Source: Opitutales bacterium
GTDB lineage: Bacteria > Verrucomicrobiota > Verrucomicrobiia > Opitutales > UBA2987
Length of the DNA stretch: 64,000 nucleotides
Assembly: GCA_965226885.1 (NCBI GenBank)
Contig: CBDDEL010000015.1
Span: forward strand, 224,001-288,000
Reading direction: 5' to 3'
Under the pieces are notes generated by a model, which was not told the DNA's origin, made no database searches, and saw nothing but the letters and a program-made list of their open reading frames with translations. Below are positions 2,382-48,263 of the stretch, piece by piece; positions within the stretch are counted from its first letter, which is position 1; every line of letters starts with the position of its first letter. Both the position numbers and the translations under genes were made by a program.

Positions 2382-3165
2382 CTAATCGGCTGTGGGGGTG
2401 TTTCGCGTTGTATTTGTGTCGCCATTGTTCGACCACCACACGCGCTTCGGTCACGCTCAGGAACAGTTCCTGATTAAGGCATTCATCGCGCAAACGATTA
2501 TGAAAGGATTCTATATGTCCATTCTGCCAAGGGCTTCCTGGATCAATGTATGCAATGGCAATTTCCTGCCGCTGCAGTTCTTCTTTGACTTGGTGGGCTA
2601 TAAACTCCGATCCGTTGTCCGAGCGGATGCACTGAGGTTTGCTGTTCTCCTTTATGGCTTTGTTCAATACCTCTACCACATCGGTACTTTTCAGTGAGCG
2701 CGCAACCTTAATGGCCAGGCATTGTCGGGTATGTTCATCGATCAGTGTCAAGAGCCTGAGCGGACCGCCCCGGTCGGTGCGATCCGCCACAAAGTCCCAA
2801 CTCCACACATGGTTGGGCTGCACTGCTCGGGTCAGGGTAGCTGTAGAGTGGCCCTGCCGGCGACGGCGCTTGCCAGGCGGCCGGCACACCCAGTCCTTCG
2901 AAACGACGCACTTTTTGGACGAATTTGCGACTCACGGGCCAGCCTTCATGGGCCAACAAAGCGCGGATCCGACGATAGCCATAGCGAGGGTGCTTCTTCG
3001 AAAAGGCAATGATGCGTGTCACCAGTTTATGCCTATACTCAGTAGCTTTCTTGGGTTCATACAGGTAGGTTGAGCGATGCAACCCAAAATACTGACAGGC
3101 CCGACGCAGCGAGCACGACCCTTGGGCCAATACATGCTTCACCGCTTCCTTTTTCTGCTTCGGGC

Positions 3166-3432
3166 CTACCATTTTTTTGCGTTCACCTCCTTGAGCACAC
3201 GGTTCTCCAGCATCTGCTCGGCTACTATCTTCTTAAGCTGCGTGTTTTCGCGCTCCAGCTCCTTCAGCCGCTTGGCGTCACGTAACTCCATCCGGCCATA
3301 CTTTTTACGCCAACGATGATAGCTTTGAGGACTAATATTGTGGGACCGACAGACATCCTGGATGCCTTTGCCTGCGTCTACTTCGCGCAGTATCGTTATG
3401 ATCTGTTCAGGTGTGTATCTTTTTTGCTTCAT
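3166..3432 (-). CDS. IS3-family transposase OrfA
   Basis: MKQKRYTPEQIITILRE...RLKELERENTQLKKIVAE...KKW: HTH plus leucine zipper. Confidence 0.9.
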   Translation of the reverse strand: MKQKRYTPEQIITILREVDAGKGIQDVCRSHNISPQSYHRWRKKYGRMELRDAKRLKELERENTQLKKIVAEQMLENRVLKEVNAKKW

Positions 3433-3885
3433 ATGTCTTTCCGGTAATTTCTCCAGAAAGACTCTCACTGGCAATGGTCATGTTTTTGGCGGTCACATCA
3501 TGAGGCATTCCGGTTTGCGTTTGAAACGGGATAATGCTGGGAAGTTAGGCGTTAGGCAAGCGAAAATGCTTTATTTTTCGGAATTTTGGTGGTTTTTCCT
3601 TTTTCCGGGAATGGAGTCTCGGGCGCCGCTGGCGGATTTTGTCAGGTTTCTTAAAAAAGAATTGAGCCCGGCGGGAAAATGAGTCATCTTGTCTTTCAAA
3701 ACGGAAATCCTGGTCTCAAATCTCAACATTTCAAAAAAAATTAAAAAAGTCCCGGATTTCAATTCTGGACTTCAAGCAGAGATTACCCGCCGCGGACCGC
3801 ATCTTGCTGGCCGGGAACTACGATTCCCACATTAAAATAAATTAATATAAATAATTAAAACCTTCTTCAAAACGAATTTCTTTCC

Positions 3886-4641
3886 ATGCCAGTATTTGAA
3901 AATATTGAGAATCAACAGGTTGCCTCTCCGGTAGAGGAACGGGGCCGAAGCCGCAAATCCAGGTACAAGCGTAACGACGCCTTCATACCTATGACACCCA
4001 GCGCCCCCCATGACGGTGAAATTATTGAATATTCACCCAACCGCACGGGCAATCGCCCGCCCGACCATGCCGCCATTTCACGCCGGGAGCAACGAATGCA
4101 CCGATCGAAAAAATATACCCAAAAAATAAATACTGGGCTGATCAATCCTTTTTCGGACCTTATGCTTTCTTTGGGCGACGATGGCCTGAAGTCTTTTTTC
4201 CTGGAAGGAGTAAAAAATATTCTCAAAACCCTCCGCGGTCTCTGGCCGACCAAAAAAAAGAAATCTACTCCGAAAAGCGGAGACTTCCAGAGAAGAAAAA
4301 GGCGGCCACGCAACAGAGGAGACTATCAAAAGAGGCGCAAGCAAAATGGAAACGAGGGAAAAGAGAAGCGGAACCAGGAACGGCCCAACCGCAATCGAAG
4401 GAGGGGGTCGAAAGGTAGATTGCCCCAACAAGGAAAATCCGAAAACCAGGGCAATTCAAGACAAGGCAATTCAAGAGATGGATCTGCAAACCGGAGGGGA
4501 AACAATGCCAACCCCAACTCCCAAGCCAACCCCAACGCCAATTCAAATTCCAATTCCAACTCAAAACCCAACCGCAATCGCCACCGTCGAAGAAGACCAT
4601 CCTCCGACCCCACAGGGGCCCAATCTCCCCGCAAGGACTGA
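3886..4641 (+). CDS. Hypothetical Arg/Asn-rich, largely low-complexity basic protein
   Basis: 251-aa ATG ORF after an AT-rich promoter-like region, ending 18 nt before murA. Contains RRR clusters and NANPNS repeats. Confidence 0.6.
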   Translation: MPVFENIENQQVASPVEERGRSRKSRYKRNDAFIPMTPSAPHDGEIIEYSPNRTGNRPPDHAAISRREQRMHRSKKYTQKINTGLINPFSDLMLSLGDDGLKSFFLEGVKNILKTLRGLWPTKKKKSTPKSGDFQRRKRRPRNRGDYQKRRKQNGNEGKEKRNQERPNRNRRRGSKGRLPQQGKSENQGNSRQGNSRDGSANRRGNNANPNSQANPNANSNSNSNSKPNRNRHRRRRPSSDPTGAQSPRKD

Positions 4642-20025: not shown

Positions 20026-20418
20026 TCAGGAAGGAATGAGCAATTCCCGAAAAGCCTCAATGGTGAGGGCGAATTCTATTTCAATCTGTTCGGCAATAGC
20101 GTCGAGATCGGCTAAGCTTCCATCATTGATGTTGTTTTCCAGCAATATGGAGAGCTTGGAAATCCTATTGCCGCCCATATTAGAACTGCTTCCGGCAACC
20201 GCATGGGCAAGTTTAGCCGCCTCAGCCCAGTCTCCTCTGGCAATTGCCGGGCGAATCCGTTCCACCCGCGCAGTGTTGTCCTGGCAATAAAGGTCGAGCA
20301 GTTCCTGCAATAGTTCCGGCTCGCACTCCAACGCCGTTTCCCGCAACATTTCCACCTGATTATTGTCTAGAAGGGGTTCATCGCTTTCAATGAAAGCCGC
20401 TGCCACAGATGTATTCAT
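20026..20418 (-). CDS. Stand-alone Hpt domain protein
   Basis: AHAVAGSSSNMG phospho-His motif in a helical acidic protein. Confidence 0.82.
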   Translation of the reverse strand: MNTSVAAAFIESDEPLLDNNQVEMLRETALECEPELLQELLDLYCQDNTARVERIRPAIARGDWAEAAKLAHAVAGSSSNMGGNRISKLSILLENNINDGSLADLDAIAEQIEIEFALTIEAFRELLIPS

Positions 20419-20614
20419 TTCTAAGAGACATCGTATTTTTCAGCACTAAATTAAGAATTATTGCCATTTATTAATGCCCCACAAAGCGCTTCAGGTTCGA
20501 CGGGACAGGCAAAACAAAGTCCTTGCATTTGCTTGAAATCGAGGGAAACCCTATTAATTTCGCAATAAAACCAATCCGTCTGCTCGATTCATTACAACTA
20601 GTGATTTGCCCGCA

Positions 20615-21052
20615 ATGAGTGATTCAGCCAAAAAAGAAGCGATAGATATTCTGCGTCTCACGAATCAGGATACGCTCAAGGCTCTGGAAATCATTGAGCG
20701 GCAGCTATTTGTCATTTATACGCGGGCCCAGGTGTTGGTCAGTCTGGCCGGGGTGGTAATAACCGTAACGGGTTTTTCGGGCCGCACAATTGCCGGCACA
20801 TCCCTGCCTGCCCAATTGCTCATCATCGGCGGCTTGGCAACGGTACTGGGCTGCGTCATCTGGATTTACATGAATGTGATGAAAATCAACTGGTCCACAT
20901 CGGCCTTGTGTGAGGATCCCGTGGATTGCCTGATGAATCTCATTGAGCGCCGAAACAAAAAAACCCAAGCTTATTTGGTGGGCGGACATATTTTCTTTAT
21001 CGCCCTCTACTGCATTTCGGTTTCCCTCATGCTGCTCAGTCCGGGAAATTGA
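20615..21052 (+). CDS. Hypothetical membrane protein
   Basis: About three hydrophobic segments. Converges on the AraC gene. Confidence 0.6.
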   Translation: MSDSAKKEAIDILRLTNQDTLKALEIIERQLFVIYTRAQVLVSLAGVVITVTGFSGRTIAGTSLPAQLLIIGGLATVLGCVIWIYMNVMKINWSTSALCEDPVDCLMNLIERRNKKTQAYLVGGHIFFIALYCISVSLMLLSPGN

Positions 21053-21090
21053 GAAATGACCCGTCCCCCCGAGTGGGGGAAAAATCAAAA

Positions 21091-21993
21091 TCAAACCGCC
21101 CGCAGTCTGGGGTGTATATCGTCCAGGCTTTTGCGAAACCCAGTCGGAGTGGCGCCGGTGATTCGCTTGAATGACCGGTTAAATTGGGAAAGCGACTCGA
21201 AACCGACATCGAATGCAACCTCACTGACTCGTTTGTTGGGGTTATAGAGGAGATTTTTGGCCTTCTCGACTCGGATGCGGGTGAGGTAATCGGTAAAAGT
21301 CATACGGGTTGATTTTTTGAACATTTTGCAAAAATAGTGGGCGCTTGTATTGACCGCCCGGGCAGCCCTGTCGAGGGTCAAGGTAGATTCGTAATTATCG
21401 AGTATGAACCGACGCGCTTTGGCCACCATTTCCGGTTCGGAATTTTTTTCTTTGACCATAATGGCATTGCTGATGGAGGCCAGATGCTGGGCAAAAGTCG
21501 CCAGCAGTTGCACAAAAGCTTCATACTGTTCCGGACTCAACACCTTGGTTTGGTAGTAGGCTTCCTCCAGACGCTTCAGGTTTATGCGTGTGCCGAGGGC
21601 GAGGATTTTGCGGGTAATTTTGCTGAAATGTTCGTCGTTCGGCTGATGCAGGAGCACTTGGCCGGTTTTTAAAAATGCGACCACATTTTCTCCCACCCTA
21701 ATGGGGACGGCGGAATCGCAAAGACCGGCAAAACATTTGAGGGTGCGCGGTTTGAAATTGGCCTCGCGCTCCAGTTTTTCCTGCACCCTGAGGCATTCGA
21801 GGCAGCTTTCATTGCTGTCCGCCATCAGGGAGCAGAACGGATTGGTGTTCTCCGACTGCAACCACTCAAGATTGAGAGAACCGGCGATACTCAAGGCCAG
21901 GGGCAAACCGGTGGCAGTGGAATAGGCCTTTTTATAATCGCGATAGATGGCGGTACGTGAAAGTTTTCGCGAAAATTCACGCTTTTGCGTCAA
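21091..21993 (-). CDS. AraC-family regulator with PocR sensory domain
   Basis: N-terminal NPFC...C...CFAGL..SAVPI (PocR). C-terminal YFCKMFKK...VGFESLSQFNRSFK (AraC HTH). Confidence 0.92.
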   Translation of the reverse strand: MTQKREFSRKLSRTAIYRDYKKAYSTATGLPLALSIAGSLNLEWLQSENTNPFCSLMADSNESCLECLRVQEKLEREANFKPRTLKCFAGLCDSAVPIRVGENVVAFLKTGQVLLHQPNDEHFSKITRKILALGTRINLKRLEEAYYQTKVLSPEQYEAFVQLLATFAQHLASISNAIMVKEKNSEPEMVAKARRFILDNYESTLTLDRAARAVNTSAHYFCKMFKKSTRMTFTDYLTRIRVEKAKNLLYNPNKRVSEVAFDVGFESLSQFNRSFKRITGATPTGFRKSLDDIHPRLRAV

Positions 21994-22931: not shown

Positions 22932-24485
22932 TTACTTGGGTTGTGGATAGCGGAGAAGGACGGGGATATCGCTCAGTCGGCTGACCAGACGAAAAGTCCC
23001 GCTACGCGTATCGCGATACAAATAGGGCGCCCAGTATCCGATGTCCTCCCGGCGCCACCATTGGCCCGTTTCTTTTTTCTCCGAAAGGATTGTAAAAGAA
23101 TACCTGTACAATTTAAACCGAATGATTTGCGGTGGAGATTCCGGGAATGGATTGTGGGCGAACAACGCCGTAACGTCGGCTTCTCCCTCAATCAGCCTGG
23201 CCCCGGCCAAAAGAACGAACCGGTGCCGCTCATTGCCATAGACGCCTAACTGGGCAAACCAGAGATTCCAATCGAAACGCGGCAGGTGCGGCGCCATGAA
23301 ACGCGGCGCGATGCCGGTATCCTGGGCCTGCCATTTGAAGCGGTAAGTTTTCCAACTCAAGCCCCCGTCATTGGAACCCTCATATTCAATATGGTGGCGG
23401 TGGTGAGTCATACTGCCGAAAAGAGCGTAGCGATTGGCCGATCGAAAATTTCCCAGCAAAACCAGCGGCTGCCGGGTAAAGGCGGGAAGGGAATTGACCG
23501 GAACCCGCATGACGGCCAGAAAAATGTATAAGCCGATATAAAAAAAGGGGAGCAGCACAACGGAAGCGGTAACTTTTCGCCACCAGGCAGCGGCAGCCGG
23601 TGAAACGCCGGTTTTCCTTTCAGGCAAAAAAGGCAAGATTTTTCGAATCGCCCTGTCGTCCAAAAGCAGCATTGCCAGGGCAATGGAATTGTAATTGAGA
23701 AATGTATAATTGCCGGTCAGGAGAATTCCGAGGTTCATTCCGCCCCACAACAAACACAACAAGATGCGCCCCTTGCGCCCGAGGAAAAATAAAAATGGAC
23801 CTACCACTTCGACATAGAGAGTGGCCCCCGTCATGCCGGAATGAACCCAATCGGGAAGGTGCTGGGCATACCAGCCCAGCCAGGTCGGGAAAGGACAGTT
23901 CACATAGTAATCTTGAAGGGCGGAAAAGGTTTTCCAGGCCTCGTCGCCCCCCATGCTCTTGGCTATCCCCGGCTCAAAAATCAAACGAAAGCAGAGCCAC
24001 CAGAACAACAGCCTGACCACCACTGAGGACGGCGTCCGCTCCCCCAAACCTGGCCGCAGTCCTCGCGGTGCCAAGAAAACGGCCAGGAGGACCGTCTCCA
24101 GCATGAGACCATCGGATTGGAATCCAGAGAAATTGCGCGCCGCCGAGACAAATGATAGATAAAAAATCCAACAGAATACGAGGGCGGCGCGAGGCCACGC
24201 ATTCAATAGGAGCAATAACCCGGCAATCATGCCGCCATAGCAAATGAGGTTGAGCCCGGCAGCGCCTGCGTCGCACCACAATAAGGTTGGCGCCGACAGG
24301 AAGGCCTTCCACGAGGGCATTTGGCTGGCCAGGGCATTCAGGTAATCCTCTGCCGGCAGAATACCGCGCGGCCCGATGAGCCCGTATATCTGGGTGGAAA
24401 GCGAGAGGAAGGAAGCCAGAAAGCCAATCCCCAGAATTCGTAGAAAAATCCAGCGAGACCAAAAAAAGGTCTCATCCTTGCCCAT
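22932..24485 (-). CDS. Lipase maturation factor (LMF1)-family membrane protein
   Basis: GLIGPRGILPA, F.GFQSDGLMLE, TGNYTFLN, N.Y.LF..MT and APHLPRFDWNLWFA motifs. ATG overlaps the sulfotransferase stop (TGATG). Confidence 0.9.
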   Translation of the reverse strand: MGKDETFFWSRWIFLRILGIGFLASFLSLSTQIYGLIGPRGILPAEDYLNALASQMPSWKAFLSAPTLLWCDAGAAGLNLICYGGMIAGLLLLLNAWPRAALVFCWIFYLSFVSAARNFSGFQSDGLMLETVLLAVFLAPRGLRPGLGERTPSSVVVRLLFWWLCFRLIFEPGIAKSMGGDEAWKTFSALQDYYVNCPFPTWLGWYAQHLPDWVHSGMTGATLYVEVVGPFLFFLGRKGRILLCLLWGGMNLGILLTGNYTFLNYNSIALAMLLLDDRAIRKILPFLPERKTGVSPAAAAWWRKVTASVVLLPFFYIGLYIFLAVMRVPVNSLPAFTRQPLVLLGNFRSANRYALFGSMTHHRHHIEYEGSNDGGLSWKTYRFKWQAQDTGIAPRFMAPHLPRFDWNLWFAQLGVYGNERHRFVLLAGARLIEGEADVTALFAHNPFPESPPQIIRFKLYRYSFTILSEKKETGQWWRREDIGYWAPYLYRDTRSGTFRLVSRLSDIPVLLRYPQPK

Positions 24486-25594
24486 CAACAAATAGATATT
24501 TCGGCAGGAATATTGTAGTTCCAATAATCGAGGGCGAAACCCCATTGATCTTTTATTCTTTCCACTTGGCGTGGCGTCAAGCGATAGACGTTGCGGCGGT
24601 AGTTTCTCTGTCCATGGATATAAGCCTCTATCCCCTTGAAGGCTTCCCGGCGCTCGGAAAGTCCATGGAAATCATATATTTTCTCGATCTCCCGCATTGG
24701 ATTCCGCTCGATTTCCTCATAGCTTACTTCGATCAGGTCCTCCGCCGGTAGTGTGGGTAGTTCCTGCAAATACCGTTCCATGAGAAGACGGTAATTTTCG
24801 AGGGTGATGGTTTCAAAATCGAGATGCTCGTAAGTCTGCCAAGCGAAGGCGGGCATGGTTTGCTCGTAATGCTTCACAGTGGAACAAAAGACATTGTAGG
24901 GGTTGCGAACTATATGAATGAAGCGGGCGTTGGGGAAAACGGTTTTCAGCCACCGGGCGCGGGTGGTGGAAGCGGGATTCTTGAGCAAGAGCCGTTTCCC
25001 CTCATTGGCCAGCGTCAGTTTCCGCAACAGGTAGAGGTAAGCGCTCGCAAAACGCTCCAGTTCACCTTCCTCCAATCCGTCGAGCAGAACCGAGCGGCGG
25101 TAGTGCTGTTGTAATTTTTCCGGAAAATAATAACAATTGTAGTAGCACAGCGGGTTCATATTGCCCAACGCCATCTCCTCTTCCTGGGGCGAGTCCAGGG
25201 TTAGGGAAACGTTATCCATGCCGCGCGTTTCCGGCAAGATCCTTTCGATTATGGGTGGAGCGATTTTCAATTTACCCAAAAAATCCAGCGGCATGGCTGT
25301 CTGCAGAAAGGAAATCCAGGCAAACTGGGGGTCGCGGCTTAAAAGGTTGTGCAAATGGGTGGTTCCGCTGCGCCAATGCCCCAGTATGAAGATGGGTTCT
25401 TTTTCCAGCACCGTGGCATTGATGCGGGAACGATAAAGCAAATGCTCAATCTGGTAAAATGAGAATCGGGCCATAATGGCTAGTAGCCCGATGGCTTGCG
25501 GGAGTAGCGCGGGCCCCTGAAATGCGCGGTGTTCCCGCAGGAGTTCCAGATAGGTCGTAAGATTGCTTCCGGCGAGCGGGTGCAAGAGTCTCAT
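24485..25594 (-). CDS. PAPS-dependent sulfotransferase
   Basis: 5'-PSB loop PIFILGHWRSGTTHLHNLL, LLKNP, 3'-PB FIHIVRNP....S, and V.YE. Confidence 0.92.
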   Translation of the reverse strand: MRLLHPLAGSNLTTYLELLREHRAFQGPALLPQAIGLLAIMARFSFYQIEHLLYRSRINATVLEKEPIFILGHWRSGTTHLHNLLSRDPQFAWISFLQTAMPLDFLGKLKIAPPIIERILPETRGMDNVSLTLDSPQEEEMALGNMNPLCYYNCYYFPEKLQQHYRRSVLLDGLEEGELERFASAYLYLLRKLTLANEGKRLLLKNPASTTRARWLKTVFPNARFIHIVRNPYNVFCSTVKHYEQTMPAFAWQTYEHLDFETITLENYRLLMERYLQELPTLPAEDLIEVSYEEIERNPMREIEKIYDFHGLSERREAFKGIEAYIHGQRNYRRNVYRLTPRQVERIKDQWGFALDYWNYNIPAEISIC

Positions 25595-25624: not shown

Positions 25625-28600
25625 TTATACCCCATGCAGGGGATCGCTTATGGTCGGGTCGGAGGATGTCGTTTCTTTAAAACGCTCTATGGACTCCGGC
25701 GAGATGAAATAACCCTCACATTGAGGCCGGGCCGATTCGAGGTCCAGAGTATGCAGCAATTTGTAGTGGGCCAGAGAGTCTTCCAATTTGACCGGGCCAA
25801 GGGTAGGCCGGATGTCCGGCTTGCGCCCAGTGAGAAGGCTGGATAAAATACAACCGGTCATCTCACGAGGATCCCTCCCCACCAGGCTTAACAATCGGTT
25901 GCCTCCCAGTTCCTCGATTCTTTCGACCGCGCCGCTGGGCAGAAAAATGGTTTCTTTCACTTCTTTCTGCAGGCGGATGAGGCCACCGGTGGTAAAGAGT
26001 ATGTCGTGCTCGGATTCGATTCGCTGAATGGCGTCGAGGGTGTGGAAGCAGGGAGGAAAGGAATCGTCCACGATAAGCGTTCCGGGCCGCAGGCGGTTGA
26101 CGTCAAGGATGCCGGGAACATTGGTCGCTCCTAGAATAAAGGAGGCCCTGTAAACAGCATCCGGCAATCGGCCGCGGGTCGGTTCCAGCTTGATTTTGCC
26201 ATCGAAACCCAATTCCTCCACCAACTTGCGGCGGATGCCTTCAAGGGAGTCGATTTTCTGGTAAAGATCGCACAGGATGAATTCCTTGGGGTGAGGCAGC
26301 ACTTCGAGCATCAGCCGCATGGTTGCATAGCCGATGGATCCCAGCCCGACAATTGCCACAGATTCCTCCTCCAGGCTGCGTTCGGCCAGTGTCAACAATC
26401 CCTCCATGGATTTGATAATGGTGGCAGTTGTTGTGGCGTGCCCTGTTGTAATGATGGGCAGATCGGTACGGCCGTCGATTAAATCGGTCACTTGCAACCC
26501 GTAGTTGGTGGCCGAGGGGATCAGACCGGTCAGGGACACTTTCTTTGCCCCCATGTTCTTGGCGATTTCCAGCGATTGCATGATTTGATCGCCCAGAAGA
26601 GTCTGGTTTTTATAAAGCTCGGAACCGAGCCGAGGCAGCATGACAAGCCCGATGCGGCCATAGGGAGTTTCATAAATATTGCTGATAAAGGACCTGTCGT
26701 GCAGCCAGTTATGGGCAATATCGTCTTTGCTCAATCCGGTCAGGGGAAGAAAGGCGTCGGGTATATAAGCGAGGGCGACGGCATCAACCTGGGGCAATGA
26801 ATCGCGGTCGCCGTTAAAGCCTTCGACCACCTCCAGATTGAGGTATTCGGAATTGGCAATCTCTTCGGCCATATTATCCATATAACTGCCGTTGCCGTTG
26901 AAAGCGGAACCGGCGGCGATTTCACGATCATCTGGAATGGTGTCGAGATAACGGGCCAGGTACTCGACGGTGGGGTTGCGCAAGAATACTTCGACTGGAA
27001 ATTGCCGGTTAAAAACCTGCGAGATTTCGGTCAGCAACTGCAGGGCAAGCAGTGAATCACCTCCCAAATCGAAGAAATTGTCAGTGATGCCGACCTCTTC
27101 GCTGGAAAATGCCTTGTTGAGGATATCGACCAAGATTTTTTCGGTCGGAGTTTGCGGAGCGGTATATGCGGCCTGCAACTCGACTCTAACGATTTGCGGG
27201 GCGGGCAGGGCCAGGCGGTCGATCTTCTTGTTCGCGGTAAGGGGAAAATTGTCCAGCAGGACATAAGCGGCCGGACGCATGTAATCGGGCAACAGTTCCG
27301 TGAGATGGCTGCGCAGCTCGGAGGTCAAGCCCTCGGATGGGTCGTTGGCAATGATGTAGGCGACCAAACTGTCGCCGCCCGGCATATCGCCTCTTTTGAC
27401 GACCACTGCTTGGTCCACCTTGCTATGGGAACGCAGGTGTGTCTCGATATCCTCCAGTTCGATGCGATACCCGCGCAATTTGATCTGGGTGTCGCCGCGC
27501 CCCAGAAAATCGATTTTTCCATCGGGCAGGAAGCGGGCTAAATCTCCCGTCTGGTAAACGCGTTCCTTTTTGCCATTGGGCAGTTGCAGTTCGATAAATT
27601 TTTCCGCCGTCAAATCGGGCTGGTTGTGATAACCGCGAGCCAGCCCATTGCCGCCAATATAGAGGTTGCCCGTGAAGCCGGGCGGCAGGGCGTTGTGATT
27701 GTCGTCCAGAATGTAAATCGTGGTGTTGGCGATGGGCCGGCCAATGGGCACGCTACCGGGCTGCGAATCCACCTTATCGACGGTGGACCAGATGGTCGTT
27801 TCAGTCGGCCCGTAGAGGTTCCATACGGCACGGGTGCTGGGTAGCAGGGACTCTGCCAACTCGCGGGGCAAAGCCTCCCCGCCGCAGAATACGCGCAGGT
27901 CGTGCTTGCCGTTCCAACCGGAGTCCAAAAGCATCTGCCAAGTGGCCGGCGTGGCCTGCATGGTGGTGACCGCATATTCCTCCAGAAGCATGGAGAGGCG
28001 GCGGCCATCGGTGGCCTCCTCCCGCGTGGCGATAACGACCTGCGCTTCGGCCACGAGGGGTAAAAAGAGTTCTAGTACCGAAATGTCGAAAGAGAGGGTG
28101 GTGACGGCCAAAAGCGTGTCATCGGTAATCAGGCCGGGGGTTTCCCGCATGGAGGAAAGGAAGTTGACGACAGCGCGATGGGGAATTTCGACCCCTTTCG
28201 GTTGGCCGGTGGAACCCGAAGTATAAATGATATAAGCGAGCGAATCTGGGGAATTGGCGACAACCGGGCCTTTTCTGGCGGCACCCGTATTTTCCACCGC
28301 AAGGAGGCTCCATCCACCCTCCGGAAGGCTCTCCTGGAGATGGCCTTGGGTAACCACAACGGACGGATTGGCGTCTTCCAGCATTTGCCGGATGCGGTGC
28401 TGGGGAAAGGCTGGGTCGAGCGGCACATAACAACCGCCGGCCTTGAGGATGCCCAAGGCGGCGATCAGCATTTCGACGGATCGGTCCACGTACAAGCCCA
28501 CCGGGCAGTCCACATCGATTCCCTGCGAGCGCAATTTCAGGGCCAGGCCGTTGGCCCTGCGGTTGAGTTCGCCATAGGTGAGCGATTTGCCCGCGCTGGT

Positions 28601-31600
28601 TACGGCCGTGCGGTTGGGATTGTGTTCGGCGTGTTCCGTCACCAATTGGTGCAGGCATTTGTCCTCGGGGTATTCCAGTTCGGTATGATTCCATTCCTCG
28701 AGGATAATCTTTTCTTCGTCTCGAGACAAAAATGAAAGCTCGGAAATTTTCTTTTCCGGGTGCACCACCACTTCTTCCAGGATTTGCTTGTATAGCCCGT
28801 TCAGGCGGTCGATGGTGGCCGGCTCGAAGAGGTCGCGGTTGTACTGCCAGCAGCCATAGATATGCCCGCCAGCTTCTTCCACCACGAGGGAAATTTCAAA
28901 CTGGGCCTGGCGCAGGTTCAAATCAATCGATTCCACAGATATATCGCCGACTTTAAAGTTGTGCCCACCTTGTCCGATGAGGAATACGGCGATGCCTTGC
29001 TCGTCCACGCCGGGAATTCGTTCCATAGAAAAAGTTACCTGAAAAATGGGCGAGCGGCTTGGGTCCCGTTTAACTTTGAGAGCATCGACCAAATGGGAAA
29101 CGGGATGCTCCTGGTGCTCTATGGCGGCAACCACCGAATCGCTCATCTGGTTGAGGTATTCGTTAAAGGATGGGTCGTCCACTACCCTGCTGCGAATCGG
29201 AACCGGGTTGATGAAAAAGCCCACCACTTCATGAAATTCCTTTAAGCGGCGACCGGCGAAGGGGCTTCCCACAATCAAGTCGTCCTGGTTGCAATAGCGG
29301 TGTAGGAGCACTTGAAAGGCCGAGAGTAGAGTGGTGTAGAGAGTGACATTGTTCGATTTGGCCAGAGTATCCACCCTCCGCGAGAGGCGGTCATCCAGCT
29401 TGAACCCGTGAGTGGAGCCATTGAAAGACTGCACCGGCGGACGGGCATGGTCGGTAGGCAGATCGAGAACCAGAGGAGCCCCCTGCATCTGGTCCTTCCA
29501 ATACCTGAGCAATTTCTCCTTTTGGGGGCCCTTGAGAAGCGTTTGCTGCCAGTTCACGTAATCCGAATAACGATAGGGCAATTCCTCTAATTTGTGGGTG
29601 AGTCCCGATTTGAGAGCAAAATAACTTTCCATCAGGTCTTGCATGAGGAGCGCCACGCTCCAGGCATCGGAAACAATGTGGTGCATGGAGAGCAAGGTGA
29701 TGTGGGATTGATCGGCGGTGCGAAAGAGTTCCAGCCTGATCACGGGGCCCTTCTTCAAATCGAAGGGCTGGTTGGCGTGCTCGACCAGAAGCTCCTTGAT
29801 TTTTTCTTTGCTCAGGTGCGTGGTATCGTGCTCCCGAAAATCGATGGTCCGGTTTTTACGCAGGGTCTGCAGCGGCTGCCCGGTTTCATCGGAAAAAGTG
29901 ACGTCGAGCATCGGGTGCCGTTGAAAAAGAGCGGCAAAAGCCCTTTTCATGACCGAAATATCGACATAAGGGGTAATCTTGGAGCTGAAAATCAGGTTGT
30001 AAGCCGGACTGTGGGGGGCCAGTCGATTGAGGAACCAGAGGGCGCGCTGCCCCTCCGACAATGAAAAGACCGTCTCTTCCTCTTCCGACCGCTCCACGGT
30101 AGGCATCCCTGAGGATTCGGAGGTCTCGGTTTCATTTGTGGAATCTTCGCCCGCTTTTTGCAAAATGAGTTCTAGCACGGGAGTGGCCAGTTCGATGATA
30201 TTGGGGCCTTGCAGGAATTGCCCCATGGGCAGGTTGATACCCAGGTTGGTTTCCAGCCGGTTCATCAACTCGATGGCCATAAGTGAATCCAGCCCGATCT
30301 GGGTGAGGGGCGTATCGCGATCGATTTGGGCAGCGGTGGTGCCGAATACTTGTGCCACCTGTTCGCAAATATAATCGGCCACCATGGGCAAACGCTCGGC
30401 AGGGGTGGCAGCGATGACTTTGGGCCGGAAAGAATAGGCATCGCCGTAGGCTGAGTCGGCCTTTTTCTCCTTGTTCACCATTTTGGCATAAGTGAGCGAA
30501 CTTGCCGTTGCCGGATTGAGCCGGGCCAAACCCGTCCAATTAATCCTCGAGGCACCCAATTGAGCGGAGTTCTTGGGCAATACGCGGGCAAAAATGCTGA
30601 GGGCTTCACTGGGGGTAAAGCTTTCCAGGCCAAGCTTATCCAGATATTTGGCCACTTTTTCGTTGCGCGCGACATAACCGGCTTCGGAAAGGGCGCCCCA
30701 ATTCATGGCCAGAGCTGGCAGGCCGAGAGCTTTCCGATAGTTGGCGATAGCATCGAGAAAGAAATTGGCGGAAGCGTAATTTCCCTGTCCTGATCCACCA
30801 ATCATGGAGGATGCGGAGGAGAACAGGATAAAATGTTCGAGCGCCAAATCGAGGGTCAGGGTGTGTAAATTCCAGGCCCCGATCATTTTGGGTTCGAGGA
30901 CTTTGTTGAAGCGCTCCGGAGTCAATTGGATGATCCAGTCGTCATCCAGAACCATTGCCCCGTGGATGAGCCCGCGCAATGGCGGCATATCCGTTTCGAT
31001 TAGTTTGAGCACCCGGGCGATGTCTTCCTGGCGGGTCACATCGGCACTGACCACCTCTACTCTGACACCTTTGGCCTGCAATTCCGCAATGGTATCCCGG
31101 GCCAGGTCTGTGCTGGCCCCGCTGCGGCCCATGAGAACCAGGTTTTGCGCTCCGTATTCCACCATCCAGCGGGCCACTTCGAGGCAGAAACCGCCCAAAC
31201 CGCCAGTTATCAGGTAGGTGGCGTCGCCCCGGAACAGCCGGTCAGCCTGCAGGGACGGTCTCACTGGAATGGATTCCACTTGCATGGAGAGTACGTTTTT
31301 CCCGATATGTTTGGCCTGGGCCATATAGCGGAAGGCTTTTTCCGTCTCGCAAATGGAAAACGATTTCAAGGGCAACGGCCGCAGCTTCTTTTCATTAAAT
31401 AATTCGGCCAGTTCCGACAGCATCGAGGTAATAAAGTAGGGCCGATCTTTAAGAAATGAGGCTAGATCGATGGCGAAATAGGAGATATTGTCCTTGAAGG
31501 GTTCCAGGCCAATCTTGGTATTGGAATAAATGTCGATTTTACCAATTTCCAAAAACCTTCCATAGGGCGCCAGTACGGAAAAACTGCGTTGAATGAAATC

Positions 31601-38502: not shown

Positions 38503-41500
38503 ATGAAATTAACCGAGATCGCCATTAAAGAAAACCGTTTGACCCTGACGCTGGCCGTTTTCGTCGTTCTCGGCGGGTTGATAGCCTTGTTTAACCTGCC
38601 AAGGTCCGAAGATCCCAAAATTCCTTTCCGATTCGCCCTTGTGACCACTATTTACCCCGGCGCTTCAGCCGAGCGAATGGAAAACCTGGTCTCCAGAAAA
38701 ATCGAGGAAGCGGTCAAAGAGGTGCCTGAAGTCGAATTCGTCAACAGTCTTTCCCGCCGCAACGCTTCGGGGGTCCTCATAAAGCTGAAGGATGATTACA
38801 AAGACTTGCGACCCATTTGGGATCGCTTGCGGAGGAAGATCGAGCGGGTAGGCAATGACTTTCCCGACGGTGTCAGGGGGCCATTTTTTAACGATGAATA
38901 TGGCGAGGTATTCGGCATCATAGTTACTATCTCCAGTCGAAATCTTCATTACCGTGAGATCAAGAATGCGATCGATGCCTTGCACCAGCGATTGCTCGGG
39001 CTTTCACAGGTATCCAAGGTGATCGAGCTTGGCCAACGGGAGGAACGGATCACCATTACCTACGACGATGCGGAGATGGCCGAGGCCGGGCTTTCCCCCT
39101 TCCATTTCAAATCCTACCTGGAGGCGCAAAACGTTATCGCTCCGGGTGGCGGCCTCCTGGAAGGCCGCAAACGCATCGCGACCGAACCGGCCAGCGATTT
39201 GGAAAACCTGTCAGACATCGAGAACCTCTATGTGGCTTTCCCAGAAGACGAAGACGCCTTTAGCCTGGGCGAACTAGTGGATGTCACCAGCGGATTCAAA
39301 GACCCTCCCGACAGCTTGTTGCGATCTTCAGGAGTTCCCGCCATCGGTCTTGGGATTTCCCTGCGGGAAGGAGGAAACATTGAAAAGCTGGGTCGCCAGG
39401 TTCAGATGGCGGTGGACGATTTTTCCAGTTCTACCATCGAAGGATTGCAATTCGACTACGTGGCCTTCGAGCCGGAACGGGTAAAAAAGCGGATCAACAG
39501 GTTCTTCATCAATCTTCTGCAAAGCCTGCTCATTGTGGGAATCATTCTCATGGTCACCCTGGGGCTGCGCACTGGCTCGGTCGTAGCCAGCATGATGCCG
39601 CTGGCAGTTCTGGCCGCCCTCTGCGTAATGCTCGCCGTCGGCCTCAATATCAACCTGGTGGCGCTTGCCGCATTTATCGTCGTGCTGGGCATCATGGTGG
39701 ACACCCATATCGTAATTTCGGAACGCATCATGGTCCTGCGGGGGCAAGGCATGTCCGCCCTGGACGCCGCCACCACCACGACAAGCGAGCTTTATCCCCC
39801 CTTGCTGACGGCCACCTTTACCACCGTAGCGGGATTTTTGCCCATCTATGTGGCCAATTCGACTGGCGGCGAATACGTCACGCCCCTCTTCACGATTGTT
39901 ATGATCACCTTGTTTTGCTCGACGTTTTTCGCCTTCACCATTACGCCGGCGCTCTCCATCAAATTCTTCAAGGTAAACCCGGACGGCCATAAACCGCTCA
40001 CCGAAAAGCCCATTTACAAGGTTTACCATAAAATACTTTTGTTTCTGCTGCCGCGGCCCTTTCTTGTCCTGACAACCCTCGCGGTAGTGTTTTCATTATC
40101 GATCTACGGTTTTCGATTTATTCCCACTATATTTTTTCCTGCTTCAGACAGACCCATATTTACGGTCGATCTCGAATTTCCAGCCGGAACGGTCATTGAG
40201 CAGACCGAGCAGGCTGCCGCCAAAATCGATCAATTTGTCCGGGAAAACCTGCTCGTTGAGCAAAATGACGGAGTGGGCATCACCAATTGGGTATCCTTCA
40301 TCGGCCGCAATGCCCCGCGTTTCATTCTCAATCATCGAACGCGCGAGTATAATCCCGAATACGCCTACTTTATTTTCAATATCACCTCCACGGATGATTT
40401 TACCTGGCTGCGGTCGAAGCTGGACGCGTTTTGCGCAGAAAACATGGCGGACGGCCAATACCGCATCCGCCGCATCGAGGCGGGCCCGGCCGTCGGTTTT
40501 CCCATCCGGGTCCATATTTCCGGCGAAAATCAGGAGGGCATGTTCGCTATCGCGGAGGAAATCCAGGAGGAAATGGGAAAACTGCCGGGGGTCTTCAACA
40601 TCAACAATAATTGGGGCGCTCCCATCAAAAAATATCGCGTCGTTATCGAAGAGGAGGCCGCCGGGCTGGCCGGGGTAACGCATGGCGAAATCGCCATGGC
40701 CTTGCAAACCTACCTGACGGGCATACCGGTCACTGAAATCCAACAGGGAAAAGACAGCATCCCCATCATCATTCAATCGTCGGTGCAAGGCGCCGATGCA
40801 TTGGAAAAAATCAACGCCCTCCAGGTTTACTCAAGTATCTACAAACGATCGGTGCCGCTGAATGAGGTGGCCGCCATGGTCGAAGTTTATGAATCGGCCA
40901 ACATCATGCGGCGGGAATTCCGGCGCACCGTCACGGTCAGGGCGGATGTCGAGCCGGGCCTCAATCCGAAAAAAGTAGACCGCGCCCTGGAAAAATTCAT
41001 GGAGCAAAAAAAACCGCAATGGGCCGATGCATTTTATGTTCGGCTGGGGGGCGAAGGTACCGAATCGGCCAAGGCCAACCTTTCCATCCTCAAAAACGTC
41101 CACTGGGCATTCTTTATCATTCTGCTCCTTCTGGTTAAGCAAACCCGCTCCTTTCGCCGCTCCTTCATTATAATGAGCGCGGTGCCCATGGGCATCATCG
41201 GGGTGGTCTTCGGGCTTTTGGTCACCCGCCAGCCATTTGGATTCACCACCCTGATCGGCATCGTCTCCTTGACCGGCATCGTGGTGAACAACGCCATCAT
41301 CCTGATCGACCGCATTCGCATCAACACGGGGAAAGGTGAATTATGCGCCCAGGAGTGCATTGTGGAAGCCGCCCTCGACCGAATGCGCCCCATCCTCTTA
41401 ACCACCATAACCACCGTGGGCGGGATTATGCCCCTTTATCTGAGGGGAAACCCAACCTGGCAAGGCATGGCCGTGGCCATCATTTTCGGCCTCCTTTTCG

Positions 41501-41595
41501 CCACCGTTCTGGTTTTGGGAATTGTCCCGGTTCTCTATGCGCTCCTTTTCCGCGTTTCTTTCAAAGGTTACCGCAAAGCGGATGAGGAAAACTGA
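38503..41595 (+). CDS. RND (AcrB/AcrD/AcrF-family) efflux permease
   Basis: 1030 aa. YPGASAE..E, GIVVNNAIILID and RMRPILLTT motifs. Two large periplasmic loops. Confidence 0.93.
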   Translation: MKLTEIAIKENRLTLTLAVFVVLGGLIALFNLPRSEDPKIPFRFALVTTIYPGASAERMENLVSRKIEEAVKEVPEVEFVNSLSRRNASGVLIKLKDDYKDLRPIWDRLRRKIERVGNDFPDGVRGPFFNDEYGEVFGIIVTISSRNLHYREIKNAIDALHQRLLGLSQVSKVIELGQREERITITYDDAEMAEAGLSPFHFKSYLEAQNVIAPGGGLLEGRKRIATEPASDLENLSDIENLYVAFPEDEDAFSLGELVDVTSGFKDPPDSLLRSSGVPAIGLGISLREGGNIEKLGRQVQMAVDDFSSSTIEGLQFDYVAFEPERVKKRINRFFINLLQSLLIVGIILMVTLGLRTGSVVASMMPLAVLAALCVMLAVGLNINLVALAAFIVVLGIMVDTHIVISERIMVLRGQGMSALDAATTTTSELYPPLLTATFTTVAGFLPIYVANSTGGEYVTPLFTIVMITLFCSTFFAFTITPALSIKFFKVNPDGHKPLTEKPIYKVYHKILLFLLPRPFLVLTTLAVVFSLSIYGFRFIPTIFFPASDRPIFTVDLEFPAGTVIEQTEQAAAKIDQFVRENLLVEQNDGVGITNWVSFIGRNAPRFILNHRTREYNPEYAYFIFNITSTDDFTWLRSKLDAFCAENMADGQYRIRRIEAGPAVGFPIRVHISGENQEGMFAIAEEIQEEMGKLPGVFNINNNWGAPIKKYRVVIEEEAAGLAGVTHGEIAMALQTYLTGIPVTEIQQGKDSIPIIIQSSVQGADALEKINALQVYSSIYKRSVPLNEVAAMVEVYESANIMRREFRRTVTVRADVEPGLNPKKVDRALEKFMEQKKPQWADAFYVRLGGEGTESAKANLSILKNVHWAFFIILLLLVKQTRSFRRSFIIMSAVPMGIIGVVFGLLVTRQPFGFTTLIGIVSLTGIVVNNAIILIDRIRINTGKGELCAQECIVEAALDRMRPILLTTITTVGGIMPLYLRGNPTWQGMAVAIIFGLLFATVLVLGIVPVLYALLFRVSFKGYRKADEEN

Positions 41596-41625: not shown

Positions 41626-41970
41626 ATGAACGTAATTCTCTACCACAACCCGAGATGCAGCAAATCCCACCAAACCCTGGCGTTGCTGCATGAAAATGGC
41701 GTGCAGCCGGAAATTATCGAATATTTGAAAACCCCGCCGAATGTCGAAGAACTGGAAGACCTATTGGTCAAACTAGGTCTCGAACCGAAAAACATAGTGC
41801 GGCCCGCCGAAGCCAAAGAAGCCGGAATCAACCAACTGGACGGCAAATCCCTTTTGGCCGCGCTGGCCGAGAACCCCGGGGCATTGCAGCGGCCCATCGC
41901 GGTATGCGGCCACAGGGCCGTCATCGGGCGGCCTCCGGAAAACGTCCTCACCCTTTTATCGGCCCGATGA
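41626..41970 (+). CDS. arsC: ArsC-family (glutaredoxin-type) arsenate reductase-like protein
   Basis: [21 protein letters not shown] and IGRPPE motifs. Confidence 0.85.
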
Positions 41971-42782
41971 AATCCCGCTGGCAACTGGAGGGCAAAAATG
42001 CCTTGATAACAGGCGGCACGAGGGGCATTGGCCGGGCTATCGCGGAGGAATTTGTCTCTTTGGGAGCCAAAGTTTGCCTGGTCGCCAGGAACATCGATCC
42101 GGCCCATGAATTGGTTGAAAGATGGAATCGGGAAGGTTGCGAGGCCATCGCCATACAGGCCGATTTGAGCCGGGCGGAAGACCGTCAAACGCTTTGCGCG
42201 GAATTGGCAAAAAAATGGTCCCGGCTGGATATTTTAATCAACAACAGCGGCATAAACATCCGCAAGGCCGCGGTTGATTATTCACTTGAGGAATATTACA
42301 AAATTATCGATACGAACCTGACTTCCGCCTTCGATCTTTGCCGGCTCCTCCACCCCATGCTGAAAAAATCGAAAGAGGGCAGTGTGGTCAACATCGCCTC
42401 GGTGGCCGGCCTTTTCCATGTGCGCAGCGGCGCCCCTTACGGAATGAGCAAAGCCGCCATGACCCAACTGACCCGCAACCTGGCGGTGGAATGGGCCCAG
42501 GATGGCATCCGCGTAAATGCCGTGGCGCCTTGGTATATTAAAACGCCCCTCGTCAAAGCGCTCCTGGAAGATCCTGAATTCATCAACCCCGTTTTGGAGC
42601 GCACCCCTCTGGGCCGGGTCGGCGAACCCCGAGAGGTTGCCGCGGTTGCGGCTTTTCTCTGTATGCCGGCCTCATCCTACATCACCGGACAATGCCTGGT
42701 GGTGGATGGGGGAACCACCGTTTGTGCTTTTCATCCACAATGGGAAAATATCCTGCAACCAGGTCCACCTTCTGCGGTATGA
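41967..42782 (+). CDS. SDR oxidoreductase (tropinone-reductase-like)
   Basis: [17 protein letters not shown] and NAVAPWYI.T motifs. ATGA overlap with arsC. Confidence 0.9.
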
Positions 42783-46452: not shown

Positions 46453-48263
46453 GAGGCTGTCCCAAAAATATAAAGATTTTATAGTCAACTGGATGACGTT
46501 GATAAAAAGAGCCGGAAAGAGCAAGTTTTTGCTCGATCCGGCCAAAAAAGGGTTCTATAATTGAGTTAGCGAAAATCAATATAGCCCTTTCTATGTCTAT
46601 GAAAAATATAGCCATCCAATGCCTCCTGCGTCCAGCTTTAACTGTGGTCGACCGGTGCCTCGATTACGATAACTTCCGCGCCACCATTGATCGAATCGAT
46701 CGGCTGCTGATCGACTCGGAGGTGGAATCGCAGGCCTTGGAGGGGTGGCCGCCAATGGGTCTAAAGGCCCGGCGGCAGCGGGCCAGTTTTGCCATCAAGG
46801 CACTGCGCATGGATACGCTGGGCCGTCTGCTCGGAGGGATTTCGTTTCGGCATTTGTCGCGGGCTCTGGGCAGCAGCGATCTGTTGGCCGACTTTTGCCG
46901 TGTCCGGCAGATCGATGGCATCAGGGGCATCTCCAAAAGCACCCTGGAGCGGGCCTCGAAGTTTTTCAGCGAAGAGCAGTTGAGGGCCTTGCACCGGACC
47001 TTGACTGAGGTGGTGGGCGATGCCCTTCTGGCCCGGCAGGTGGGATTGGACAAGCCGATTGACACCACCTTTTGCCTGATCGACGGCACCTGTTTGGAGG
47101 CTAACATTCATTGGCCGACGGACTGGGTATTACTCAAGGATGTAGCCGGCACGTTGCTCAAAGCGATCCGGCTGATCCGCGAGAAGGCCGGTTTGCGCCA
47201 TCGCATGCCGATCGAACCGGAGCCCTTGGCTCGGCAGATGAATCGGCTGTGCATACAGATGACCCACAGCCGGCGGCGAAAGGACAGCGCGCGGCAGCGC
47301 AAGGGTATCTTGAGGCAGATGAAAAAGCTGCTCAAACGGATCGGGGAGCATGCCCGCAGTCACCGGGAATTATTGCAAGCCTGCTGGGAGCAAAGCGATT
47401 ACAGCGAAAAACAGGTCCAACAGATCCTCGCCCGGATGGAGCGCATGAGCGAGCAAATCCCGGTGGTCATCAAACAGGCGCACGAGCGGATCATTGGCGG
47501 CCGCCAGGTGAAAAACGCAGAGAAAGTCTTGAGTGTTTACGAACTCGATGGGCAGGTGATTGTGCGAGGTAAAGCGGGCCAAGAGGTCGAGTTCGGCAAC
47601 ACCCTGTTTTTGGGAGAAAGCGTTGAAGGGTACCTGCTGGACTGGAAACTCTACGGCAGCCGAACTCCAAGCGAAAATGAACAAATGCAAGAGAGTTTGC
47701 AAAGACAGAACCGCTTCAACCTGGAAGAACCCATAGCGGCCATGTGCGCGGACCGGGGATTTGCCTCCCAGCGGGCCCGCTGGGAGTTAGCCCAGGAGGG
47801 AATCTACGACGCGCTCTGTCCACGCGATCCGAAGCAGTTGAAAAAACGGATGGAGGAACCACTGTTCAGACAATTGCAAAAGCGCCGGGCCAGCACCGAA
47901 GGGCGGATCGGGGTATTGAAGAATCGCTGGCAGGCCGGGCGGTTGCGCAGCAAAGGCTTTGCCAACCGCTCGATCAGCGTAGCCTGGTCGGTACTCTCGC
48001 ACAACCTATGGAAAGTAGCCAAGATGCTGGCCCAGCAAGACGAACTAAAAACCAAAGCGGCGGCCTAGAGAGCGGAAAAGCAAGGACAATACTTTTTCAC
48101 AGCCTTACTGTCGGCTCATACAAAGAAAACCAGGCAACCGGACCCCAAAACCAGTATCCTAACGTCATAGGAGAGCAAAGTTGATACTCTCCCAAATGCA
48201 AATACCTCTAAAATGAGCGCCTATCAAAAGCCCTCGCAAAAATCACCCTTTTGGGACAGCCTC
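46453..48263 (+). mobile_element. IS5/ISNCY-like insertion sequence, copy 2 (1811 bp)
   Basis: Same IRs as copy 1. 7-bp duplication TAACATA at 46446-46452 and 48264-48270. Confidence 0.93.
46593..48068 (+). CDS. DDE transposase, near-identical to 7688..9169
   Basis: Lacks IELA (12-nt deletion), has a 6-nt TCTATG duplication at the start, and a few substitutions. Confidence 0.9.
   Translation: MSMKNIAIQCLLRPALTVVDRCLDYDNFRATIDRIDRLLIDSEVESQALEGWPPMGLKARRQRASFAIKALRMDTLGRLLGGISFRHLSRALGSSDLLADFCRVRQIDGIRGISKSTLERASKFFSEEQLRALHRTLTEVVGDALLARQVGLDKPIDTTFCLIDGTCLEANIHWPTDWVLLKDVAGTLLKAIRLIREKAGLRHRMPIEPEPLARQMNRLCIQMTHSRRRKDSARQRKGILRQMKKLLKRIGEHARSHRELLQACWEQSDYSEKQVQQILARMERMSEQIPVVIKQAHERIIGGRQVKNAEKVLSVYELDGQVIVRGKAGQEVEFGNTLFLGESVEGYLLDWKLYGSRTPSENEQMQESLQRQNRFNLEEPIAAMCADRGFASQRARWELAQEGIYDALCPRDPKQLKKRMEEPLFRQLQKRRASTEGRIGVLKNRWQAGRLRSKGFANRSISVAWSVLSHNLWKVAKMLAQQDELKTKAAA

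Follow-up and report, generated by a model that had tools for sequence, protein, structure and literature searches.

A domain of approximately 400 residues forms the end of CarI, VatR and HcaD, and the products of the corresponding pathways (carmabins, vatiamides E-F and hectoramide B) are terminal primary amides that retain the last residue of the chain (Rankin et al., 10.1101/2024.10.28.620694). The crystal structure of the CarI domain, which carries the label 'putative terminal amidation domain' (TAD), is two-lobed and resembles the cyanobacterial acyl-acyl carrier protein (ACP) reductase (AAR) (10.1101/2024.10.28.620694). The window analysed here, a stretch of 64 kb (contig CBDDEL010000015.1 of assembly GCA_965226885.1, positions 224,001 to 288,000) from the genome of a member of the Opitutales (Verrucomicrobiota), carries a hybrid polyketide synthase-nonribosomal peptide synthetase (PKS-NRPS) that ends in a domain of the TAD family. 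The genome has a size of 5.48 Mb in 17 contigs, is 96% complete and contains the TAD in a single copy.

The CarI TAD binds NAD+ with a dissociation constant (Kd) of 11.6 µM and NADH with a Kd of 3.5 µM; NADP(H) is not bound. Its active site comprises an invariant TTG, a GxGxxG loop, the NAD-selective Asp2102 and an Asp-Asp-Ser-Gly-cisPro loop, the second Asp of which stacks on the nicotinamide and is argued to favour NAD+. The invariant Cys2238 lies 4 Å from the nicotinamide C4, and the phosphopantetheine (Ppant) arm of the peptidyl carrier protein (PCP) crosslinks to, and forms a disulfide with, this residue. Rankin et al. also consider a redox-neutral route via an aldehyde and name the absence of authentic substrates as the obstacle (all 10.1101/2024.10.28.620694). 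The literature search yielded nothing relevant on later TAD activity or on a product from Verrucomicrobiota; the paper on megapolipeptin, in the part consulted, describes a different amidation route.

The megasynthase of the window (Table 1) combines one highly reducing PKS module with a glycine module, an arrangement upstream of the TAD that differs from CarI. Pfam placed the KS at residues 7-382, the AT at 547-857, the DH at 908-1188, the methyltransferase at 1418-1518, the ER at 1862-2157, the KR at 2180-2358, the C domain at 2562-3019 and the A domain at 3041-3512, with two PP-binding matches; the protein begins straight at the KS, without a loading module. The stretch after C, A and PCP runs to the stop codon and makes up the C-terminal end of the terminal NRPS module, which is the position of a TAD, as in CarI after the last PCP. 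The roughly 420 residues after the PCP received no Pfam assignment in the full-length scan and, when scanned alone, matched only 2-Hacid_dh_C at E 0.22; neither a thioesterase (TE) or NRPS-reductase domain nor an SDR or NAD_binding match was found by Pfam in this stretch. A regular-expression search of the last 421 residues, on which the domain numbering used below is based, detected no GxSxG, TGxxGxxG or YxxxK, and a single GxGxxG at domain residue 182. A TE or an SDR-type reductase (R) domain was therefore rejected, as both the motifs and the Pfam matches are lacking. These results bear out the preliminary description of the locus, which had reported a release domain without TE or SDR motifs and had quoted the strings GGDSL, GAKKVSLTGLIPS, ITTGHATTTATI, ESVAIVGLGSIG, IVDDSFP and MTGCILSSLL, all of which are present in the translated open reading frame (ORF) in that order.

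The best sequence matches in the PDB were 9e4s/9e4u and 9e4x/9e50/9e56 (phmmer E 2.8e-87, domain residues 12-410), a similarity that at the sequence level is far beyond chance; among 8000 candidates scored, 182 database homologs were found at E<=1e-3. The Foldseek listing gives these five entries the title 'TAD from Carmabin Biosynthetic Pathway' and the release date 2025-02-26. An AlphaFold model built from a 36-sequence alignment (mean predicted local distance difference test score 91.2) matched the CarI TAD entries with a Foldseek E of 6e-51 and a template modelling score of 0.89. In the VIA comparison with all five entries, Z was approximately 52-53 (52.8 at a root-mean-square deviation (rmsd) of 2.0 over 381 residues), with an rmsd of 2.0-2.2 over 381-396 residues and an identity of 38-40%, and the alignment covered model residues 12-418. 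Membership of the terminal domain in the TAD family is essentially certain. The novelty that the preliminary description had attributed to the domain is thereby lost, since the domain belongs, and closely so (38-40% identity, a Z of 52.8), to a family already published. The feature itself is real, and its start, placed earlier at 26800, has to be moved about 20 residues upstream, since the folded domain begins near 26857 (residue 12-15).

The second-ranking structures were four cyanobacterial AAR entries (PDB 6jzq/6jzu/6jzy/6jzz; Foldseek E ~5e-17, Z 28.4-28.9, rmsd 3.3-3.6 over 313-318 residues), with model residues 36-397 covering AAR residues 1-341 (VIA). The next unrelated folds were formate and 2-hydroxyacid dehydrogenases (Z 14.4), which match over approximately 150 residues of the Rossmann lobe only. 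By this model the fold is that of cyanobacterial AAR, not that of an SDR or a TE, as the preliminary description had deduced from the raw sequence; its further proposal, a fold distinct from the usual NRPS R domain, is borne out by the same figures (E 5e-17, Z 28.9 vs 14.4). In the comparison with AAR structures that it had recommended, an SDR or amino-acid dehydrogenase was not the best match; in the relaxed profile alignment described below, domain residue Cys347 aligned with the AAR cysteine. Amino-acid, malic and 2-hydroxyacid dehydrogenases were rejected as the closest kind, the resemblance being confined to the Rossmann lobe (sequence E 0.01-1; Z ~14 over ~150 residues).

The link to AAR is weak by sequence alone (TAD profile against AAR PDB chains, E 0.075). 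Profile-profile alignment (hhalign) to four AAR genes of cyanobacterial genomes gave a probability of 93% and an E of 3e-7, and paired TTGH/TTGN, GLGSIG/GATGDIG and VDDSFP/IDGGYP (TAD/AAR); with relaxed settings MTGCILSS was paired with AAR FACFAES, which places Cys347 on the AAR cysteine of the ACFAE motif. The order TTG, GxGxxG, Cys, given for AAR in the preliminary description, is thus found aligned in that order. Common to AAR and the domain are the fold (Z 28.9, 317/341 residues), the motif order and the catalytic Cys, with which the equivalent helix begins. Differences are an identity of 16-17%, an extra N-terminal strand and helix, and an excursion of about 30 residues before the Cys; moreover, AAR is a free-standing enzyme that acts on acyl-ACP, whereas the domain is fused to a PKS-NRPS of 4044 residues, and AAR uses NADPH and has Gly where the domain has Asp276 (10.1101/2024.10.28.620694). 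The AAR family model TIGR04058 was not among the NCBIfam matches listed up to E 10, so that the domain shares the two-lobed fold and the equivalent Cys with the AAR family and neither its family-model match nor its free-standing status.

All active-site equivalents of the CarI TAD are present except Gly2172, here Phe278. CarI residue numbers were obtained as the PDB chain index + 1886, applied to the phmmer alignment, in which Cys347 is paired with the Cys of GCAFS in 9e4s (the numbering of which is offset from that of Rankin et al.). In common with CarI the domain has the two-lobed fold, the TTG, the GxGxxG, the NAD-selective Asp and the invariant Cys, and of the loop it keeps Asp-Asp-Ser..Pro. 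Invariant in the 36-sequence alignment are T149, G150, G182, S185, G187, D208, D275, P279 and C347; Cys347 was found in 36/36 aligned homologs and in 18/18 Verrucomicrobiota orthologs. A cofactor site of the NAD(H) type is predicted to be present from GLGSIG and Asp208. Four of the five CarI loop positions are kept in D275-D276-S277-F278-P279, the Gly being replaced by Phe; DDSGPH in CarI corresponds to DDSFPP here (Phe for Gly2172 and Pro for His), and DDSFPP was found in all 10 Opitutales sequences. Regarding the eight Verrucomicrobiales orthologs (L010-L017), the nicotinamide-facing Asp, which the Opitutales keep, is changed to Tyr in 8/8, a residue also reported at that position for the Verrucomicrobiota-rich cluster 3 of the preprint (10.1101/2024.10.28.620694); in 6/8 of them Arg or Lys takes the place of the second Gly of GxGxxG (GLRSIG, GLKSIG), an uncommon change in a loop that binds dinucleotides.

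Three further known systems were compared. [quoted passage not shown] PigE, an AAR-like protein in which Cys296 is conserved, has been assigned a thioester reductase function, and the purified protein did not turn over NAD(P)H either (PMC8341465). It is fused to a pyridoxal phosphate (PLP)-dependent aminotransferase rather than placed at the end of an NRPS; no aminotransferase domain was found by Pfam in the megasynthase, and on both counts, cut-off and fusion, the domain falls outside the PigE family. SDR-type R/TR domains occupy the same place in the assembly line and may share a nicotinamide-dependent role in release, whereas their fold differs and their motifs (TGxxGxxG, YxxxK) and Pfam match were not found in the domain. 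R domains are not known to use a covalent Cys intermediate. Amidation of the MtaG/MelG type likewise involves a glycine module at the end of the assembly line and a terminal amide, the code of the glycine A domain being DILQLGMIWK (PMC12283262) against DILQFGLIWK here. In that system the A domain is split by a monooxygenase and the chemistry cleaves glycine; the megasynthase described here has neither a monooxygenase insert nor a TE (Pfam), and the products of TAD pathways keep the last residue.

A scan of species-representative genomes returned 173 pattern matches, 167 of which encode relatives of the domain. Among the best 80 of these 167, the closest were metagenome-assembled genomes of Opitutales, at 83-93% identity (loci L001, L002, L003, L008) and 57-66% (L004-L007, L009), followed by Verrucomicrobiales at 45-51% (L010-L017) and then by cyanobacteria, Nitrospirota, Planctomycetota and others at approximately 40-45%. 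The KS-AT-cMT-ER-C-A-TAD architecture was entire in 15 loci (L002-L004, L006-L017) and was seen in part in L001 and L005, because the contig or open frame is shorter there. Among 40 relatives, the TAD occurred in 8/8 other genomes of the family to which the window belongs and in 3/32 from other families of the order, and at E<=1e-20 it was found in 0/200 other sampled genomes of Verrucomicrobiota; conservation of the gene is thus limited to one family, outside which its occurrence is scattered. A phylum-wide housekeeping role in lipid metabolism was rejected on the last of these counts.

Some side observations concern individual homologs. In L008 (G214:C29, of the same genus as the window) the TAD-bearing open frame is only 2507 residues long, yet every upstream domain is detectable, and a DDE transposase gene follows a sulfotransferase gene and an LMF1 fragment; this copy may be disrupted, or the assembly may be in error. 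In one of the Verrucomicrobiales (G008:C32:14193-14888) a second, partial TAD-like frame of 257 residues, 50% identical to domain residues 77-309, lies approximately 1.7 kb from the full-length TAD. Elsewhere, homologs are fused to a thioesterase domain (P0026) or follow KR-ACP (P0041), and free-standing homologs of about 430 residues occur in Hahella, Enterobacter, Vibrio, Burkholderia and Robbsia (among P0079, P0090, P0104, P0110 and P0114).

The ten specificity positions of the A domain were located by eye from the core motifs. The code has the form DILQ[F/L]GL[I/V]W. in 17/18 orthologs, L016 reading DIMQ... instead. Glycine-activating domains have the code DILQLGMIWK, and glycine signatures vary at positions 299, 322 and 330 (PMC12283262). 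As the sole departure of DILQFGLIWK from the variation in published glycine codes is Phe at the variable position 299, activation of glycine is a well-supported prediction. The catalytic motifs of the DH, ER and KR domains appear intact (judged by eye); with the KS coming first and no loading module, the PCP should carry an N-(2-methylacyl)-glycine whose fatty-acyl starter is supplied from outside.

A sulfotransferase of the 3'-phosphoadenosine 5'-phosphosulfate (PAPS) type is encoded immediately after the megasynthase. An ortholog directly downstream of the TAD was found by tblastn in 9/9 Opitutales loci (52-91% identity) and in 0/8 Verrucomicrobiales loci. In whole-genome searches of 41 genomes including that of the window, all 12 TAD-positive genomes have an ortholog (52-100% identity) at most 152 nt from the TAD match, and none of the 29 TAD-negative relatives has one, two of these having homologs at only 32-36% identity; the 12 genomes overlap the loci L001-L009 and are kin from at least six genera, not 12 independent events. 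The best PDB matches of the protein were 2z6v and 2zq5 (E ~4e-6); a CurM-type sulfotransferase was considered and rejected, the similarity to the CurM and OLS sulfotransferases being weak (E 0.015 and 0.0017). Among five Verrucomicrobiales genomes, four contain a sulfotransferase of 44-47% identity, in each case on a contig other than that of the TAD. In two of these four loci (L086:4908-11580, G006; L088:6602-9167, G010) it adjoins a FA_desaturase-family gene, and in L086 it also stands beside genes for a WelO5-like Fe/2-oxoglutarate oxygenase or halogenase, a CMAS-like methyltransferase, a MauE-like protein and an Sfp-type phosphopantetheinyl transferase. This neighbourhood has the look of a set for lipid tailoring and is not linked to the megasynthase; no match to the FA_desaturase-family gene or the WelO5-like protein was found in the genome of the window.

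On the other side, a permease gene is divergent from the megasynthase gene, with no ORF of at least 150 residues in between, and has a counterpart at the same position in all five more distant Opitutales relatives fetched (53-61% identity). Its NCBIfam RND matches are all below the curated cut-offs, so that by sequence it is classed as a divergent RND permease, which likely exports the product. Beyond the sulfotransferase, no conserved downstream gene was found in 16 related loci. The conservation of these two genes, with nothing else downstream, suggests a functional unit of RND permease, megasynthase and sulfotransferase and points to an exported sulfated lipid. The strict linkage of sulfotransferase and RND permease to the TAD in the Opitutales cassette is unlike the description of the CarI pathway, from the cyanobacterium Moorena, in the main text of the preprint, where the word 'sulfotransferase' does not occur; its supplements or the journal version may show such neighbourhoods (10.1101/2024.10.28.620694). 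The domain had been described and solved as TAD before; the Opitutales context, the Phe in place of Gly2172 and the linkage to a sulfotransferase and an RND permease are what the present analysis adds.

The best explanation of these observations, held tentatively and at slightly less than an even chance, is that the domain performs an NAD(H)-assisted release via Cys347 of the kind proposed for the TAD family, with a primary amide as the most likely product. A fatty-acyl starter would be extended once, with C-methylation and full reduction of the beta-carbon, and the chain condensed with glycine to N-(2-methylacyl)-glycyl-S-PCP. The Ppant arm would then enter the nucleotide tunnel and the acyl group be passed to Cys347, giving an acyl-S-enzyme as in AAR, from which the chain would be released with the help of NAD(H). 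By analogy with the family, the product would be a primary amide (N-acyl-glycinamide), possibly formed in a redox-neutral cycle that passes through a short-lived aldehyde/carbinolamine; this product, or a compound derived from it, would presumably be sulfated by the linked sulfotransferase and then exported by the RND permease. NAD(H) binding and the reach of the Ppant arm to the cysteine are carried over from the CarI paper by analogy; the present analysis itself supplies the assignment to the family, the fold, the conservation of catalytic residues, the specificity for glycine and the linkage of the genes. The rating of the primary amide follows from the family precedent and from the retained Asp276, which AAR lacks.

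Several points weigh against an amide. Rankin et al. saw no release of substrate mimics under any condition, whether NAD(H), metals, ammonia or each of the 20 amino acids was supplied (10.1101/2024.10.28.620694), so that 'amidation' is as yet a proposed activity. The case for an amide rests on gene clusters and products being correlated in three cyanobacterial pathways that are closely related; their TADs are 85-95% identical to each other and ~40% identical to the domain here. No partner that could supply ammonia (NAD synthetase, glutaminase or aminotransferase) was found in the 64-kb window. The sulfotransferase linkage calls for an O- or N-nucleophile, and N-acyl-glycinamide is without an obvious one, so that a reduced alcohol fits better. 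Finally, Phe278, which stands for CarI Gly2172, resembles the Tyr at the aligned AAR position.

Some of these points favour reductive release, in which the acyl-glycyl group on Cys347 would be reduced by NADH to N-acyl-aminoacetaldehyde, in the manner of AAR and the N-terminal PigE domain, or after a second reduction to the alcohol, which would then be sulfated; this is somewhat unlikely, and its product would be an exported lipid of the N-acyl-ethanolamine-sulfate type. The fold and the aligned Cys are common to AAR, Phe278-Pro aligns with AAR Tyr-Pro, the domain is homologous to the N-terminal part of PigE, an assigned thioester reductase (PMC8341465), and the affinity of the CarI TAD is slightly higher for NADH than for NAD+ (10.1101/2024.10.28.620694). 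Of the evidence gathered here, only the sulfotransferase linkage (12/12 TAD-positive and 0/29 TAD-negative relatives) shifts the balance toward a reduction. With DH, ER and KR present and their motifs intact by eye, no beta-hydroxyl is expected to remain on the chain, and the genome lacks matches to the FA_desaturase-family and WelO5-like oxygenases of the Verrucomicrobiales. The linkage is indirect evidence, because the sulfate acceptor could be a hydroxyl on the starter acyl chain. A two-electron reductase, moreover, yields an aldehyde and not an alcohol, and a conserved, linked second reductase was not found in the window; the SDR gene at 41904-42782 is absent from the 5 upstream loci checked. 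In each of the three TAD pathways whose products are known, the terminus is an amide, and the CarI and VatR TADs left substrate mimics unreleased with NAD(H) (10.1101/2024.10.28.620694). Together with the retention of the nicotinamide-stacking Asp (Asp276), in place of which AAR has Gly, these are the reasons why net reductive release is not the leading reading. The preliminary description had proposed Cys-dependent reductive off-loading; the AAR-like fold and the aligned Cys uphold the structural half of that proposal, and release as an aldehyde, while possible, is not established as the function.

The more specific proposition that the Opitutales TAD is an NADH-dependent Cys thioester reductase, the product of which, N-(2-methylacyl)-aminoacetaldehyde or -ethanolamine, is O-sulfated and exported by the RND permease, is unlikely. 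If true, it would define a new class of bacterial sulfated lipoamino-alcohols, provide the first demonstrated activity for any TAD and imply that 'amidating' does not describe the whole TAD family.

Other Cys-dependent chemistry, with NAD bound and not consumed or structural (hydrolysis, attack by another nucleophile, or oxidative cleavage of glycine to a fatty primary amide), or with a need for an additional partner, is quite improbable. The terminal residue is glycine, as used in monooxygenase (MOX)-type amidation, and the changes in the Verrucomicrobiales (Arg or Lys in GxGxxG in 6/8, Asp to Tyr in 8/8) suggest a cofactor site that, across the clade, is free of the constraint of a classical dehydrogenase. 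The NAD site of the domain in the window is, however, fully canonical, no precedent was found in the literature searched, and cleavage of glycine is not the general chemistry of the family, since carmabin, vatiamide and hectoramide keep the last residue (10.1101/2024.10.28.620694). A domain that survives as an inactive remnant, with release brought about in another way, is barely credible: nothing specific speaks for it beyond the fact that TAD activity in vitro has never been shown (10.1101/2024.10.28.620694), and the open frame is intact, orthologs as distant as 45% identity retain all catalytic motifs, Pfam detected neither a TE nor another release domain in the megasynthase, and the structure model is confident.

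NAD(H)-assisted release as an amide and its alternatives can be told apart at this locus. The TAD family is widespread and has crystal structures and no demonstrated reaction. The Verrucomicrobiota TAD is expected to act on a simple, synthesizable substrate, a 2-methyl-fatty-acyl-glycyl thioester, and the substrate preference of the strictly linked sulfotransferase would report the chemistry of the released terminus; the question whether TADs amidate, reduce or do both in turn is therefore directly testable. The cassette itself points to an exported sulfated lipid in one family of Opitutales.

Table 1. Positions of the features discussed, counted from the first nucleotide of the window.
Feature	Position	Strand	Remarks	Evidence
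PKS-NRPS megasynthase, 4044 aa	25625..37759	-	KS-AT-DH-cMT-ER-KR-ACP-C-A-PCP-TAD	ORF list, translation, Pfam
Adenylation domain	27224..28639	-	code DILQFGLIWK (glycine-type)	Pfam AMP-binding 3041-3378, AMP-binding_C to 3512
Ppant-attachment Ser of the terminal PCP (GGDSL)	codon 27053-27055	-		translation; Pfam PP-binding, two stretches
TAD-family terminal domain, AAR-like, two lobes	25625..26857	-	protein residues ~3635-4044; stop codon 25625-25627	phmmer, AF2, Foldseek, VIA
Thr-Thr-Gly, domain residues 148-150, lobe junction	26441..26449	-	CarI 2042-2044; T149 and G150 invariant	
GLGSIG dinucleotide-binding loop, domain residues 182-187	26330..26347	-	CarI GxGxxG 2076-2081	
Asp208, equivalent of CarI Asp2102	26267..26269	-	invariant; predicted role, after the CarI paper: NAD(H) over NADP(H)	
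Asp-Asp-Ser-Phe-Pro loop, domain residues 275-279	26054..26068	-	CarI D2169-D2170-S-G-cisP; Phe for Gly	
Cys347 (protein Cys3970), putative acyl-accepting nucleophile	codon 25850..25852	-	equivalent of CarI Cys2238 and the AAR catalytic Cys	
Sulfotransferase (PAPS-type)	24485..25594	-	30 nt downstream of the megasynthase stop codon	Pfam Sulfotransfer_3 E 5e-34
RND-family permease	38503..41595	+	divergent from the megasynthase	Pfam ACR_tran E 8e-135
Membrane protein, 537 aa (lipase maturation factor)	22932-24545	-	61-nt overlap of the ORF start with the 3' end of the sulfotransferase	Pfam LMF1 + LMF1_C

The LMF1-like gene that overlaps the sulfotransferase gene was rejected as a part of the cassette, since it occurs only in the window and, as a fragment of about 130 residues, in L008. 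The cassette is followed by genes for a PocR-sensor/AraC regulator, a small ORF and an Hpt-domain protein (20026-21993, minus strand); synteny of these, together with a MiaB-like gene, is confined to L002 and L003, loci of the same genus. Mobile-element genes in the window comprise a DDE_Tnp_1_4 transposase, an rve integrase-core fragment and a weak DDE transposase match (896-2212 plus, 2359-2889 minus and 46593-48068 plus strand), and the rest of the window is made up of ordinary housekeeping genes (EPSP synthase, RuvB, LptF/G, MiaB-like, SodA and others).

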